Shown here in pieces: positions 1 through 7,007 of a DNA stretch of 64,000 nucleotides (positions are counted from its first letter, which is position 1; every line of letters starts with the position of its first letter). This DNA comes from Dictyostelium discoideum (Eukaryota). The position numbers were made by a program, and so were the translations under genes. The stretch lies in assembly GCA_000004695.1 (NCBI GenBank), contig CM000155.2, forward strand, positions 704,001-768,000. Reading direction: 5' to 3'. Under the pieces are notes generated by a model. The model did not search any database, was not told where the DNA came from, and was given only the letters and a program-made list of their open reading frames with translations.

Positions 1-1010
1 GAATATAATAAATCACCAATTCTTGTTGGAAATTTTACACCACCATTAGGTAAAACGTTACAACCAGGTTTGCTAATGTCAGCCTTAATTGAAACTTTAT
101 GGCCGTTTCTAACTGAATTAACATTTGAAATTATACCATGTGCAAATTTTATATTTGAATGAATTGAATTTTTTAAATCATTAATTGATGTTCCTTGGAA
201 GTCACCAAATTGACCTGGTACTCCACCCCCTCTATCGGCTGCACCTGATAAATCATAAAAATCATTACCCATTTGAACCAATTTTCTTGATTTCAAAGTC
301 AAATCTGGAACAAAACTTCCATCAAAGGAGTATTTAATTTGTGAAGAATCACTGGTACCCACTGACAATTTTTTATCATCAAGAAATAATTCAACATTAT
401 ATTTAACTTGGACATTTGTTATTTCATGAACATCATAATATGGTGGACGTGGTGATAATGCAACACGATGATAATCACAAATAGTATTAAGAGGTTTTAT
501 ATAACAACCACAATCAAAGTTAGTGTGAGTTGAAGTACAATAACTATTTCCAGGATAGTGTGTTGCCGCATAATCTCGTAACAAACCTTTACAATCAATA
601 TCACTTGGTTGTATTCCTCCGCATACTCCTGTACCACAACTACCTGAACCGTCACATTGTGTTCTTTGAGATATTACTGGTTCAAAACAACTAGTTGAGT
701 ACAAAAATTTTTTATCAGATTCCATATGATAATCGGTAATCTTCAATCTTAAGAGAGCTATTGACTGTTTACTCTCATCCTTTAAATTATAACAACCTTC
801 CCAACTTTTTGATGGTAATGTAAATACATATTCCCCAAAAAATGATGAAGTGATTGTACCATTACCATAATCTTTATTTATTGTTTGAATATTATTTGAA
901 ATTAAATATATTTCATCACAAGAATAACATTTTTCAACAAAAGAACGTGTAATAATTAAAAATAGTAGGGATAGAGAAGATATTGAAAAAGTTTTAAAAT
1001 ATTTCGAAAA
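1..1010 (-). CDS. Secreted cysteine-rich hypothetical protein, 3' part beyond the left edge. The minus-strand reading frame is open from about 1010 down to position 1. It encodes a signal-peptide-like segment (FSISSLSLLFLIIT) followed by a Cys-rich domain (CDGSGSCGTGVCGG, DCGCY).
   Basis: I translated the reverse complement by hand and found more than 300 uninterrupted codons with Dictyostelium-like codon usage. Upstream of the signal peptide there is an in-frame TGA before any ATG, so the initiator is probably in an upstream micro-exon. No family could be recognised. Confidence 0.4.
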
Positions 1011-1261
1011 TGAAACAGAATATATTATTCAATTACTACACCATTCAGCAAAATTAAATAATGAAGAAATGTTTATGTATATATTCGAAAAGTATAAACA
1101 TACAATAACTGATAATAAAATCTATATATTAATAAATAGTATATTCAAAGATAATAATTTAAAAATGGCTCAATTTATATTTAAAAATTTTGAAAATGAA
1201 ATATCACCATTGGGTAATATCTTTTTTTGTAATGATTATGAAAACAAAATTATAAATGTAA

Positions 1262-2190
1262 AACATAAAAACTCACCAATCATATCAACTCTCCAAAGAA
1301 AATAAAAACAAATTTATGTTATTTCCCATAAAATACCCAGACATCTGGAAAATGTATAAAAAAACACTTGCAAATCAATGGGTAGTTGAAGAAATAGAAT
1401 CAAGTGATGATGGATTAGATTGGGAGAAAAAATTAACAAATGATGAACGTGATTTCTTCTCAAATGTTTTAGCATTTTTTGTTGCATCTTGTGGTATTAT
1501 AAATAAAAACCTTAATAGATTTATGTCTAAAGTACAAATTCCAGAAGCGAAATGTTTCTATAATTATCAAATTCATATTAAATATTTACATTCCGAAACT
1601 TATAGGTATGGCAATTAAATTATATATTCATTTATACAATTATTTATGTTTGTTTGTTTATTTATTTATTTTTATTTTTATTTTTCCCTAGTCTTTTAAT
1701 TGAAACTTGTATTAAGGATAAAAATATTAAAGATAAACTTTTTAATGCAATTGAAACAATCCCATGTGTTAAAAAGAAGGCAGAATGGGCTTTAAAATGG
1801 ATAAATGAATCATTTGAAAAACGTCTAGTAGCACTCGTAGCATTTGAAAGTATATTTTTCAGTGGAAGTTTTCGTATAATCAGTTTGTTAAAAAAGAGAT
1901 CTTTGATGCAAGGTTTAACATTTTCAAATGAATTGATTAATTAATTTGATCAAAGATTCACAAATACATATGAACAATGGTTTATAGATAACCTTCCTTT
2001 CGAAGTATATTCATTCTTTCAAACATTTAAAACAAGAAATTTACTAATTCAAATAATGAGCAACAATAAAGTGAGATATTATATAAAAAATATTTCATCA
2101 AAAACAATCATAGGCTACGCAAAAAACATTGGAATAGAAGATGAATATATTTTCTTTTTTGAAAAAATGACCAATAAAGAAATTATATAA
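1262..2190 (+). pseudogene. Degenerate ribonucleotide reductase small subunit (R2)-like paralogue. Conserved blocks lie at 1262-1608 and 1692-1941, with an in-frame TAA at 1942-1944 and continued R2-like reading to 2190. Probable pseudogene or inactive paralogue.
   Basis: The translation matches canonical R2 strongly: FPIKYPDIWKMYKK, NVLAFFVASCGII, KVQIPEAKCFYNYQI, HSETYS|LLIETCIKD (joined across a GTATGG..CTAG intron at 1609-1691), [22 protein letters not shown] and [28 protein letters not shown]. Metal ligands are substituted: Asp->Cys in ASCGII, Glu->Lys in KYLHSE, His->Phe after the stop. The radical-site Tyr (HSETYS) is kept. A stop codon sits at the Arg position of ELISRDEGLH. The N-terminal region switches frame between 1069-1305 and 1262 onward with no room for an intron. 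Confidence 0.6.
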
Positions 2191-2384
2191 ATTGGATTAT
2201 TTATTTATTATTTAAATAAAATCACGATATTAATAAAAGACTATATTTATTTATTTTTTTGTTTTTCCCACCACCCCCAATGGTATTTTTTTGGATCGAT
2301 ACAGAACAAAAATTTAATAAACTCAATTAAATCCATCTATAATAATCAATAAAATTTAATCATATTTATAATTAATATTTTATT

Positions 2385-2454
<70 letters not shown>

Positions 2455-2471
2455 TATTATATTATTATTTA

Positions 2472-2530
<59 letters not shown>

Positions 2531-2713
2531 GGTTCAGTTTTATTTATTACACTTACATTACATTAATTGATTAATATGAACAGATAAAAAAAAAAATAAA
2601 AATAAAAAATGAAATAAAAAAAAAAAATAAAAAAATGAAATAAAAAACAAAAATAATAAAATGAAATAAAAAAATGAAATAAAAAAAATATATAATAAAA
2701 AACATATAATTAA

Positions 2714-3361
2714 TTAAATATTAAATAAATTTTTTATTTTTTTTTGAAAAATTAATGTGGTAATAATTAAACATATCACCAATGTTAATAAAAGTGTTAT
2801 GATTTTGTTATTTTTTATACTAATTAATATAATTTTTAAATTTAATAATAATGTCTTCAAAATAAAAAATAATACTCCCATTGAACTTAATAATATAAAG
2901 GATGATATTATTATATAATAACTTTCAAAACAAATTGGTGATAAAAATGATTTACCACATACATTCATAAATTCTTTTACCCAAATTAAAATATCCATTA
3001 CATGATTCATAATAAAATCGAATATTGTTATTTTACAATGAATTTCCTCTTTGACTTTAATAAAAGGATTATTAATATAGAAAATTTCCATATTAAATGA
3101 TTTTTCATTCGAACAGTACTTTTCAATGTTAATTTCCGTTTGATTTTCAGTTAAATTTATTATATTCTTCTCAAATATTGAATAAATGAGTATAATTTTT
3201 GGTAACGAGTCATTAAAATTTATATGCAAAGTATTAAAATCCAATCTGTAATCATAAATAATGTTGGGAATGAAAATCGAATTATTATTATTATTTCTTT
3301 CTTTTGCTTTGATTTGAATGACTAAAAAAAATAAAAAAATTAAAACGACTTTATTTATCAT
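2714..3361 (-). CDS. Hypothetical protein with a signal peptide and a C-terminal hydrophobic region (215 aa).
   Basis: Intact ORF in the track. It begins MINKVVLIFLFFLVIQIKA and has hydrophobic stretches near the C-terminus. No homology recognised. Confidence 0.35.
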   Translation of the reverse strand: MINKVVLIFLFFLVIQIKAKERNNNNNSIFIPNIIYDYRLDFNTLHINFNDSLPKIILIYSIFEKNIINLTENQTEINIEKYCSNEKSFNMEIFYINNPFIKVKEEIHCKITIFDFIMNHVMDILIWVKEFMNVCGKSFLSPICFESYYIIISSFILLSSMGVLFFILKTLLLNLKIILISIKNNKIITLLLTLVICLIITTLIFQKKIKNLFNI

Positions 3362-3426
3362 ACTCTATAATAATATATATATAAATTGTGGGTATATATA
3401 ATAAAAAATAAATATTAAACACATAT

Positions 3427-3469
<43 letters not shown>

Positions 3470-3506
3470 AATTTTTTTTTTTTTATTTATTTATTTATCC
3501 ATTTTT

Positions 3507-3538
<32 letters not shown>

Positions 3539-3562
3539 CCCCTAAAATTTTTTCTTAAAAAA

Positions 3563-4339
3563 ATGAAATCAATCCTATTTTATTTTGTTTTATTAATATT
3601 TTTAAATAATTATGTTAATGGCAGAATTTCAGTTTCTCCCGAGTATTTATCATCTTCAGATTTCAACTCAAATCATCTTGAACAAAAATTAACAAGTGTT
3701 TATTACAATAAACCAAATTGCACTGAAGGAAATGAACTATATATAAAAATTATTAAAGGCTGTAATTTTAGAGGAAGGGTAGTAGGTAATACCACTCATT
3801 ATATGTTTTATGATGATGATCCAGAAACACCTTTAATATGCAGTAACTTTGATAAAATCTCTGAAGTAGTTTTAAAAAATACTTGTATAAATGAAATTGA
3901 TGGGAGTTCCTTTCTATATAAAGAGTACAACAATTCTGATGAACAACTTTTAAAAAAACCTGGTACAATGGTTACATATATTTACCCCTTTAAAAGTTGT
4001 AGTGAAAATGAATTTATTATAATAAATTTTGAAAATGTTTGTGAAGATATTAATGGTCAAACTGCTCGTAAAATAACATTTGATAAATCAACGCTAATTT
4101 ACCATAATTGTAGTTCTGAATGTGCTTCTTGTGATCCTCAACTAACTACAAATATAGAAAAACCTCAAGAAAAGTGTTTCAATCAAAATAATGAAACAAT
4201 ATTCACATTAACTTTATTTAATCAAAAAGAAAAAAATGCTAGTGCTTTTGATCCTTCAAAAAATGAAGGAATTATTTTATTACAAAACTTTTTATTTTTG
4301 GTCCCCATGATTACTATTTTGATATTGTTTTTTTTTTAA
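3563..4339 (+). CDS. Secreted cysteine-rich protein with a hydrophobic C-terminus, GPI-anchor-like (258 aa).
   Basis: The ORF begins with the signal peptide MKSILFYFVLLIFLNNYVNG and has about 16 Cys and several N-glycosylation sites. The C-terminus is GIILLQNFLFLVPMITILILFFF. It is flanked by poly(T) and poly(A) promoter-like tracts. Confidence 0.45.
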   Translation: MKSILFYFVLLIFLNNYVNGRISVSPEYLSSSDFNSNHLEQKLTSVYYNKPNCTEGNELYIKIIKGCNFRGRVVGNTTHYMFYDDDPETPLICSNFDKISEVVLKNTCINEIDGSSFLYKEYNNSDEQLLKKPGTMVTYIYPFKSCSENEFIIINFENVCEDINGQTARKITFDKSTLIYHNCSSECASCDPQLTTNIEKPQEKCFNQNNETIFTLTLFNQKEKNASAFDPSKNEGIILLQNFLFLVPMITILILFFF

Positions 4340-4884
4340 AAAAAATAATAGTTGAAATTTTAAATTTTTGTAAAAAACTCCTCAAATAAACGCACGCAAT
4401 TTATTTTTTTTTTAATTTTTTTTTTTTTTTTTTTAATTTTTTTTTTTTATTAATATTAAAATTTTTTTTTTTTTTTTTTTATTTTTTTTTTTTGAGTTTT
4501 TATACGAAAGAGAAAACATGATAACATTTGAAGAAATTGCAATAAATAAAATAAATAAAAATAATAAATATATAAACCAATTGATTGAAAATAAGCATTT
4601 ATCCCCAGATACATTCGAGGCATTCGGCAACAAATATGAATGTTATAGTCACATTAACAAAAAATATAAAACAGCAAAACTAGTATTGTCTCAGAGGTCT
4701 TTAGCAGATATATATAAAAACTTTGAAAAGAAACAGTCACCAGAAAGTGAATTCAAAAAATATCTTGAAAATAATAGCATTAAATTCGAGGGTGGGTGAT
4801 TCAATATTTTGAGTTTTTTTTTTAAAAAAAATAACAAAAAATCTCAATATTAATATTTTTTTTTATTTTTTTTTTTATTTTTTC

Positions 4885-4928
<44 letters not shown>

Positions 4929-4992
4929 TTTTTTTTTTTTCTTTTTTTTATATTTAAAAAATAAAGAAAGCAAACTCATTAATGTATTTGAA

Positions 4993-5860
<868 letters not shown>

Positions 5861-5981
5861 ATAAACATTGTCATTTCTTGGTTAATTTTTTCATTTAATT
5901 TTTTCATTTAATTTTTTCATTTAATTTTTTCATTTAATTTTTTTTTTTTTTTTAATTTTTTTTTTTTTTTTTTTTTTTTTC

Positions 5982-5989
5982 TCCCATAA
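5982..5989 (+). promoter_or_regulatory. DUSE-like motif TCCCATAA, matching the [AT]CCCA[CT]AA Dictyostelium upstream sequence element found about 60 bp upstream of many small ncRNA genes.
   Basis: An exact 8-mer match embedded in a poly(T) tract, about 25-65 bp upstream of the palindrome at 6012-6135. A single short motif could be a chance match. Confidence 0.2.
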
Positions 5990-6011
5990 ATTTTTTTAAG
6001 CTTTGCATGGC

Positions 6012-6135
6012 TGTTCATGAACAATTTAATATGATATAAACACAAATTCTATAAACACGAAAATTTGTGTTTATAGAAATTTGTGTTTATATCATATTAA
6101 ATTGTTCATGAACACATTTTTGGTGTTCATGAACA
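6012..6135. repeat. Nested perfect palindrome. The 37-bp arms at 6012-6048 and 6078-6114 are exact reverse complements around an internal 11-bp-arm sub-palindrome at 6049-6077. A third copy of the 12-bp palindromic core TGTTCATGAACA sits at 6124-6135.
   Basis: Read directly from the sequence. TGTTCATGAACAATTTAATATGATATAAACACAAATT pairs with AATTTGTGTTTATATCATATTAAATTGTTCATGAACA. The centre is TCTATAAACACGAAAATTTGTGTTTATAGA. Confidence 0.85.
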
Positions 6136-7007
6136 CCCTATCTCTTTGAAATATGTACAGAATAAGGACTCCTCTCATAAAAAATGTGCAAATAGTTATA
6201 AATAATCGATCTATTAATTTTTTTTTTAATTTAAAAAATTCAATTTTTCAATTACTGATTTCACTTTTTTATAAAATACAATATAACAATTTTTTTTTTT
6301 TTTTTTTTTTATTATTATTGGAAAAGTTTAAAAAGTAATTTTTTGTTAGAAAAGTTTTTAAAACCAAAAGAGTACCATTGAAATAATTTGATAGTTTCTT
6401 GTTCGACATTATTTATTATTGTTATAAATTTTTTTTTTTTTTTTTTTTTCTTCTCCACTCTTTTTATTTTAATTTTTTTTTTTTTTTTTTTTTTTTTAAT
6501 TGAAAATAAAAAAAATATATTTTTATACATATTTAGAATTAATTTATTTTTTTAGAAATAAATTAAAATTAAAAAAAAAATATATATTTCCAACTTTTTA
6601 AATAGAACAATTTGGGGTTGAATAGAAAATATAATTAATTTTTTATTTGGAATTTCTGACAATTATAGTTTTGTATATATTCAAAATTTTAGAAAATTTT
6701 TACTGAACAAAAAAAAAATTTTAAATAAATATATTGTTTTTAAAAAATAGATTTGTAAAAAAAAAAAAAAAAACAAATAAATGAAAAATAGATCAACAAG
6801 AAATTCAACACCATCAAAATTTTCACTTTTTTTTTTCAAAATTTTTTTTATATATTTATTTTTATTTTTTTTTTTATTTTTTTTTTTTATTTTTTTTCAA
6901 AATTTTTAAAAAATTTGAAACCCTTTTTTTTTTTTTTTTTTTTATTTTTATTTATTTTTTTTTTTTAATTAATTAAATTAATTCTTAATAATAATATTTA
7001 TTTAATA

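Follow-up and report, generated by a model that had tools for sequence, protein, structure and literature searches.

In yeast, the Rnr4 member of the Y2-Y4 heterodimer of ribonucleotide reductase (RNR) folds as a full-length protein, is expressed and conserved, and has the C-terminal tail. In Dictyostelium discoideum, the active class Ia RNR small subunit (R2) is encoded by rnrB (rnrB-1/rnrB-2, DDB_G0272616/DDB_G0274021), and an R2-like locus on chromosome 6, nrdB_ps (DDB_G0291764), was named a pseudogene by Crona et al. 2013, J Biol Chem 288:8198 (PMC3605638). These authors described nrdB_ps as having extra N-terminal residues and as missing about 120 C-terminal residues and four of the six iron ligands, and they found no mRNA from it, neither as a Northern signal nor as a product of reverse-transcription PCR (RT-PCR) from cDNA, in growth and at 4-24 h of development (PMC3605638). 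The stretch of DNA analysed here (the window: 64,000 nucleotides of D. discoideum, contig CM000155.2, positions 704,001 to 768,000, with all positions below counted from its first letter) contains near its left end an R2-like reading frame which is one and the same as nrdB_ps, and most probably a truncated, catalytically dead partial copy of D. discoideum rnrB. Its pseudogene status has been known since 2013. What is added here to the description by Crona et al. is that the copy kept intron 2 and lacks intron 1 of rnrB, that its homology to rnrB is limited to about 1292-1938 and is flanked by sequence that is not R2, that it sits on a strain-specific carrier segment, and that its stop statistics and its ratio of nonsynonymous to synonymous substitution rates (dN/dS) are not quite what neutral sequence would give. 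The copy is ordinary in all but one respect, namely that its frame is free of stops for longer than neutral decay predicts.

Identity of the locus

The primers used by Crona et al. for nrdB_ps find exact matches at window positions 1363-1382 (+ strand) and 1541-1560 (- strand), which reproduces the published amplicon of 198 bp (PMC3605638). By these primers, and by the published description, the copy in the window and nrdB_ps are the same locus, with no difference in identity. Database models of D. discoideum proteins at this place are of 168 and 257 amino acids, the best protein match having 100% identity, and the cluster of proteins formed at 90% identity around the locus includes the AX4 protein 'ribonucleotide reductase-related' (XP_629985.1 / Q54E77, 257 amino acids). 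An exact-sequence look-up of the 257-amino-acid AX4 model returned no record, and among the papers searched, none besides that of Crona et al. 2013 mentions nrdB_ps. Since the AX4 annotation already carries 'ribonucleotide reductase-related' here, the locus is not new.

The first-pass annotation of this DNA, made from the letters alone, had offered two readings of it, either a decaying duplicate of the RNR small-subunit gene or an inactive partner subunit of the Rnr4 type, ‘novel for this lineage’. The first of these was essentially right, in agreement with the published pseudogene call and with the lack of detectable mRNA, and the novelty falls away, given that the AX4 annotation and Crona et al. 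2013 already have the locus (PMC3605638).

Extent of the R2 homology and the stop codon

The window has 15-28% G+C, open reading frames (ORFs) with Asn repeats and short AT-rich GT..AG introns. The copy was compared with D. discoideum RnrB (338 amino acids), its genomic locus and its cDNA, and with rnrB of D. citrinum, D. dimigraforme, D. purpureum and Polysphondylium violaceum. It is made up of the following parts:

1292..1605, + strand: rnrB-derived coding block 1, rnrB codons ~16-119 and part of the Ser120 codon (KENKNKFMLFPIKYPDIW...HSETY)
1606..1691, + strand: spliceosomal-type intron of 86 nucleotides, phase 2 (GTATGG...CCCTAG), between AG and T of the Ser codon after HSETY
1692..1941, + strand: rnrB-derived coding block 2, rnrB codons 120-199, with the third ligand Glu kept (AFESIFF) and DNA similarity ending at 1938
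1942..1944, + strand: TAA stop at the Arg of ELISRDEGLH, one codon past the 3′ breakpoint of the rnrB homology

Block 1 was delimited by Pfam family PF00268, by alignments to R2 structures and to dictyostelid RnrB, by its 83% nucleotide identity to rnrB and by the matches of the nrdB_ps primers. The R2 reading frame recognised in the first-pass annotation is indeed present: spliced, 1316-1605 and 1692-1941 give a translation of 180 amino acids, which matches PF00268 (RNR small chain) with E=1e-60 over profile positions 4-189 of 281, aligns with residues 33-213 of human p53R2 and with the corresponding stretches of R2 from mouse, human and yeast, and finds solved R2 structures with E down to 1.5e-62. 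The R2 homology as a whole corresponds to rnrB codons ~16-199 of 338, or ~1292-1938 in the window. At its 5′ side, the first in-frame ATG of block 1 is at 1316, rnrB intron 1 (in the Gly52 codon) is absent, and similarity to rnrB probably reaches back to ~1278, with a probable insertion of one nucleotide at ~1291. A frame break had been noted in this N-terminal region, and what is found there is a change of frame (frame 1 ends with a stop at 1303-1305, and the R2 frame, frame 2, runs from ~1292) together with that probable insertion.

In the alignments to R2 structures and dictyostelid RnrB, the six-ligand set (Asp, Glu, His, Glu, Glu, His) is incomplete in two ways. Two ligands are substituted, both in block 1, the first from Asp to Cys (ASDG to ASCG) and the second from Glu to Lys (IENIH to IKYLH), and the homology ends before the last Glu and the last His would be reached. 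The copy still has the first ligand His (HSE), the Glu that is the third ligand (AVEG to AFES) and the radical-bearing Tyr (HSETY). Three lost ligands had been claimed at first; the Asp to Cys and Glu to Lys changes stand, and the third, His to Phe, does not, for the second His would lie past the end of homology and, since similarity to rnrB ends at 1938, the supposed change came from a comparison of unrelated sequence. The helical bundle is incomplete too, and the C-terminal tail for binding of the large subunit is absent, the rnrB homology ending at codon 199 of 338. With two iron ligands substituted, and with the final two ligands missing along with the tail and the C-terminal third of the fold, the copy cannot work as an RNR subunit. 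These missing 3′ parts would either never have been copied or have been lost at the 3′ breakpoint.

The TAA at 1942-1944 takes the codon of the conserved Arg of ELISRDEGLH, just as first reported, and it stands at the homology breakpoint, since DNA similarity to rnrB stops at 1938. A sequencing error, which the first-pass annotation had entertained, is ruled out: the first 2400-2600 bases of the window are 100% identical in an independent NCBI assembly and in four Logan read assemblies, and all five of these independent assemblies span the TAA (a fifth Logan contig covers 886-1787 and ends before it). Being 100% identical, the assemblies spanning the stop therefore yield no polymorphism data. 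Past the stop, the frame had been described as R2-like up to 2190, which is wrong. The 81 codons after the TAA have no Pfam match and reach only E=1.1 against D. discoideum RnrB in BLASTP, a permissive DNA alignment of 1939-2330 with the 3′ half of rnrB scores 63 versus 62±9 for shuffles, and tblastn with the C-terminal half of RnrB finds nothing in the sequence after the TAA.

These limits bear directly on the proposal that the locus encodes an inactive, Rnr4-type R2 partner of RnrB, paired with it as yeast Rnr4 is paired with Rnr2, with the TAA being either read through or an error. The loss of part of the ligands with the radical Tyr and the overall R2 similarity kept, and the frame that stays open for 81 codons past the TAA, would suit such a partner, and the copy is like Rnr4 (Y4) in its R2 descent and in its partial loss of iron ligands. 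However, the sequence after the TAA has no R2 similarity, and therefore read-through would not restore helices, ligands or the C-terminal tail; the stop is the same in five independent assemblies; the copy is closer to active R2s (yeast Rnr2 E=2e-59; range 1e-59 to 1e-62) than to Rnr4 (E=1e-33); and no mRNA was detected (PMC3605638). In addition, no counterpart was found at this site in D. citrinum, in D. dimigraforme or in two further strains of D. discoideum, and a protein search found no annotated orthologue of the copy. Yeast Rnr4 is full-length, expressed and conserved, whereas the copy lacks about 140 C-terminal residues of the full-length fold, has no detectable expression and is strain-specific. 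Because these ~140 residues include the large-subunit-binding tail, the Rnr4-type reading is not supported; in its strong form it is refuted by the end of homology at 1938 (codon 199 of 338), and we reject it as extremely improbable. For RNR biology the outcome is of little consequence: D. discoideum has a single active small-subunit gene of class I, which is duplicated in AX4, and a dead fragment, as was concluded in 2013, and therefore no Rnr4-like subunit in this lineage.

Host origin, intron history and age

The break in the reading after HSETY is the intron at 1606-1691 and not damage. The intron has 15% G+C versus 26% in the flanking coding blocks, and its site and phase are exactly those of rnrB intron 2, which in D. 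discoideum, D. citrinum, D. dimigraforme and D. purpureum splits, in phase 2, the Ser codon that comes after HSETY (ACTTATAG before gt...ag and TCTTTTAAT after it). In all four species the boundaries have the form ACTTA(T/C)AG, then GT...AG, then TCTTTTAAT, as determined from genomic versus cDNA sequence in D. discoideum and by fitting to the annotated protein in the other three. An intron at this very site and phase argues for a partial copy of the host gene made at the DNA level. Over the 187 homologous codons, the copy and D. discoideum rnrB have 83% nucleotide and 72% amino-acid identity, the copy is 62-65% identical to the R2 proteins of D. purpureum and other dictyostelids, and 55 sites group the copy with D. 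discoideum, D. citrinum and D. dimigraforme against D. purpureum, as derived states of that group. On these comparisons of sequence, the copy is best taken as a host-derived, DNA-level partial duplicate, and as neither a viral nor a bacterial R2. An origin from a viral or bacterial R2, which Bacteroidota-like matches of 60-65% identity and a viral-type neighbour could bring to mind, is ruled out by the host intron and by the derived residues of the D. discoideum group.

As expected of a duplicated pseudogene, the parent gene is in the same genome and the intron position is retained, and the lesions comprise truncation at both ends, the probable one-nucleotide insertion at ~1291 and the TAA at the 3′ breakpoint, with none inside the 187 codons. 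The copy is like its parent, D. discoideum rnrB, in the site and phase of intron 2 and in lineage-specific residues; it differs in that rnrB has the full 338 codons, intron 1, intact ligands, the C-terminal half and expression, whereas the copy has many changes at invariant positions. It also resembles unprocessed pseudogene fragments in general (i.e., retained intron, truncation at two ends, relaxed substitution, absent transcript) but differs from typical ones in that such divergence without internal stops and frameshifts is unusual, and in that it is in frame with a context of orphan ORFs.

The introns of rnrB number none in P. violaceum, one (intron 2) in D. purpureum and two in D. discoideum, D. 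citrinum and D. dimigraforme, and the copy has intron 2 alone. This series is most simply explained if rnrB was copied at a time when it already had intron 2 but not yet intron 1. Copying would then have taken place after the split from D. purpureum and no later than about the time at which D. discoideum, D. citrinum and D. dimigraforme radiated, and it would be most economical for it to predate the gain of intron 1 by rnrB. In this way, the copy preserves an intermediate state with one intron and shows which of the two rnrB introns came first. The bootstrap of a neighbour-joining tree places the copy as sister to the three close species in 53% and with D. discoideum in 33%.

One residue deserves separate mention. 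Gln195 (in LMQGL, copy codons at window ~1908-1922) is common to the copy and to all D. discoideum strains, the residue at 195 being Pro in D. citrinum, D. dimigraforme and most other aligned dictyostelids, and His in Heterostelium album. The sharing of Gln195 may be due to a parallel C to A change, to a small tract of gene conversion, or to closer kinship.

A copy without intron 1 but with intron 2 could also come from partly spliced rnrB pre-mRNA (intron 1 out, intron 2 kept), inserted among other fragments as a reverse-transcribed patchwork. Third-position trees and Gln195 put the copy near or inside the D. discoideum group, all members of which have intron 1, and a route through RNA is also favoured by the strain-specific segment with its spacerless, abutting coding fragments and its viral-type G2 fragment without a start (both described below), as well as by the length of the copy branch, which is two to three times that predicted by rnrB synonymous divergence. 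Even so, the 0/1/2 intron series makes copying before the gain of intron 1 simpler, the copy has the ancestral Asn where the three close species have His, its placement in the trees is statistically ambiguous, and the junctions show neither a poly(A) tract nor a target-site duplication nor any retroelement sequence. We therefore regard an origin from partly spliced RNA as improbable, and retain a DNA-level duplicate as the preferred reading.

The strain-specific carrier segment

The copy lies within a larger piece of DNA:

1..6342, starting ~180 nucleotides left of the window, no strand: strain-specific segment of ~6.5 kb, from blastn/tblastn of the gshB-NmrA interval

The segment comprises an ORF similar to Phlebovirus_G2, an upstream orphan ORF (X-up), the rnrB copy, a downstream orphan ORF (X-down) and two more predicted genes. 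For synteny, the single-exon NmrA-like neighbour was used to fetch the gshB-NmrA interval in D. discoideum ACTFIW and ACTFIR, D. citrinum and D. dimigraforme, where the identity of the NmrA coding sequence is 99.2%, 98.8%, 94.2% and 94.9%, respectively, and where the flanks align well. In none of these four intervals did blastn find a counterpart of the ~6.5-kb segment, and tblastn of the copy, X-up, X-down and the G2 protein in the same four loci found nothing. At the site of the segment, the other genomes have a stretch of ~1 kb with a gene for a 199-amino-acid CfaA_B_C-like protein. The AX4-type strain and ACTFIW/ACTFIR are ~1% diverged, yet they differ by the presence or absence of the whole segment, that is, of a piece of DNA in which the rnrB copy lies beside a remnant of a viral-type glycoprotein gene.

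Constraint on the frame and expression

The differences between the copy and rnrB fall nearly evenly on codon positions 1, 2 and 3 (37/24/34), and the pairwise dN/dS by the NG86 method is 0.54, where ~0.5 is expected with one neutral and one strongly constrained branch. The changes are concentrated on the copy branch (~91, versus 4-14 on each rnrB lineage), where many affect positions that are invariant across all aligned R2 proteins.

Several observations, however, weigh against taking the copy simply as a dead fragment. There is neither a stop nor a frameshift in its 187 homologous codons, and its two internal indels (of one and two codons) are in frame. When the 91 changes were placed at random on the inferred ancestor, a mean of 6.0 stops resulted, and a stop-free frame came out in 0.135% of 20,000 replicates; the placement kept the mutation spectrum, and is a simulation of our own rather than a formal likelihood test, subject to the ascertainment bias that open frames are easier to notice. 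Synonymous changes are in excess (24.6 observed versus 16.6±3.1 expected, P=0.004), with dN/dS of ~0.6 on the copy branch. Such a stop-free frame and such a synonymous excess are not expected of a copy dead from birth. Both flanking orphan ORFs are also open beyond chance, and the published test of expression was limited to axenic growth and 4-24 h of development, with data not shown (PMC3605638). Finally, a copy older than the species split is in conflict with a segment that is present or absent among strains ~1% diverged; since the copy is old and the segment strain-variable, the segment must have changed place or have an outside origin. Its source could not be traced, and no transposon hallmarks were seen around it, low-complexity repeats only.

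The dN/dS comparison with the functional paralogue, by which the first-pass annotation would have recognised a plain pseudogene, thus comes out divided, the pairwise 0.54 being near the expectation for one neutral branch, yet the copy branch having ~0.6 (P=0.004) and a probability of no stop of 0.00135. The copy is probably non-functional today, but over a considerable part of its history the frame derived from rnrB probably gave rise to protein, under relaxed constraint. We infer that the frame was under selection through a good part of that history and fell silent recently, or else is still in use in conditions outside those of the published test.

The two orphan ORFs that flank the copy are:

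928..1305, + strand: X-up, upstream orphan ORF of 125 codons in frame 1, with its stop at 1303-1305, running into the 5′ edge of the rnrB-derived sequence
1945..2190, + strand: X-down, downstream orphan ORF of 81 codons, in the frame of rnrB block 2 and directly after the TAA, not R2-like

The open length of X-up was reached in 0 of 5000 shuffles, and that of X-down in 2 of 5000 (P=4e-4). In X-up, G+C decreases from the first to the second and to the third codon position (GC1>GC2>GC3). Neither ORF belongs to a Pfam family. When X-up was searched exhaustively with HMMER against 1.84 billion representative proteins, the only sequence returned was X-up itself, and a word-based protein search with the concatenated flanking ORFs gave no match, which is a weak negative, as it missed even two database entries, of 78 and 115 amino acids, that match part of the query identically. 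No paralogues of the flanking ORFs were found in the window or in the fetched loci. The 257-amino-acid AX4 model joins parts of X-up (MMN and RDREDIEK...ISPL) to DIWKMYKK of the copy via a predicted intron at 1212-1340.

Such a model would make of the locus a living chimeric orphan gene, in which an orphan N-terminal part is followed by half an R2 fold (as in the 257-amino-acid model, or as 180 amino acids from the ATG at 1316), with a role other than in RNR; one possibility is that its product might bind or poison RnrB dimers and be expressed in the sexual cycle or in growth on bacteria. The absence of stops from 187 codons despite ~91 substitutions (P≈0.001), the synonymous excess (P=0.004), the in-frame indels, the flanking ORFs open beyond chance with coding-like G+C by codon position, and the genes called here by two annotation pipelines are all in favour of a living gene. 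Nonetheless, no mRNA was found by Northern blot or RT-PCR (PMC3605638), and the sole Logan member of the 90% protein cluster is an unspliced exon-1 product, the contigs that hold it keeping the intron, whereas the rnrB cDNA is assembled. The changes at R2-invariant positions and the nearly equal differences across codon positions do not suit a living gene either, and the known R2 fold makes it unlikely that half of a ferritin-like bundle could fold alone. Moreover, the 257-amino-acid model requires the predicted and unverified intron at 1212-1340, which deletes conserved R2 codons, and the locus is dispensable, since conspecific strains lack it at the syntenic site. All this considered, a living chimeric gene is unlikely.

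A more general form of the same idea would have the rnrB-derived frame, possibly joined to the orphan ORFs, be a strain-specific new gene that was or is translated, and that was brought on the ~6.5-kb segment as mobile or foreign DNA along with the phlebovirus-type fragment. It seems rather doubtful to us as well. If true, the locus would be a case of the birth of a new gene from a gene fragment, and not one of simple decay.

Neighbouring sequences

X-up, the rnrB copy and X-down adjoin each other with no AT-rich spacer between them. Further to the left, the following ORF is given as context, and is not part of the rnrB copy:

3-956 (1..956, cut by the window start), - strand: Phlebovirus_G2-like ORF (DDB_G0291774 / Q54E78)

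This ORF matches Pfam PF07245 with E=3.7e-18 over profile positions 1-247 of 324 (a class II fusion-glycoprotein domain). Its homology to Phlebovirus_G2 reaches ~200 nucleotides upstream of the annotated ATG, over which there is no Met, and it meets X-up head-to-head, again with no spacer. It may be a 5′-truncated remnant of a viral-type gene in a social amoeba, and the region as a whole looks like a patchwork of abutting coding fragments. The open frame, the carrier segment and the intron record together make the locus a modest candidate for the study of how gene fragments move, and are briefly reused, in Dictyostelium genomes.

Downstream of the copy there is a spacer of ~10% G+C, in which a long (ATT)n microsatellite (window 2380-2530), where all the Logan assemblies break, is followed by a tandem repeat of 13 nucleotides (AAAAAATGAAATA-like; window 2590-2700). 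Still inside the segment, an ORF of 221 codons at 4993-5658 (+ strand) consists mostly of Asn runs, which is typical of the poly-Asn coding or low-complexity sequence of Dictyostelium.

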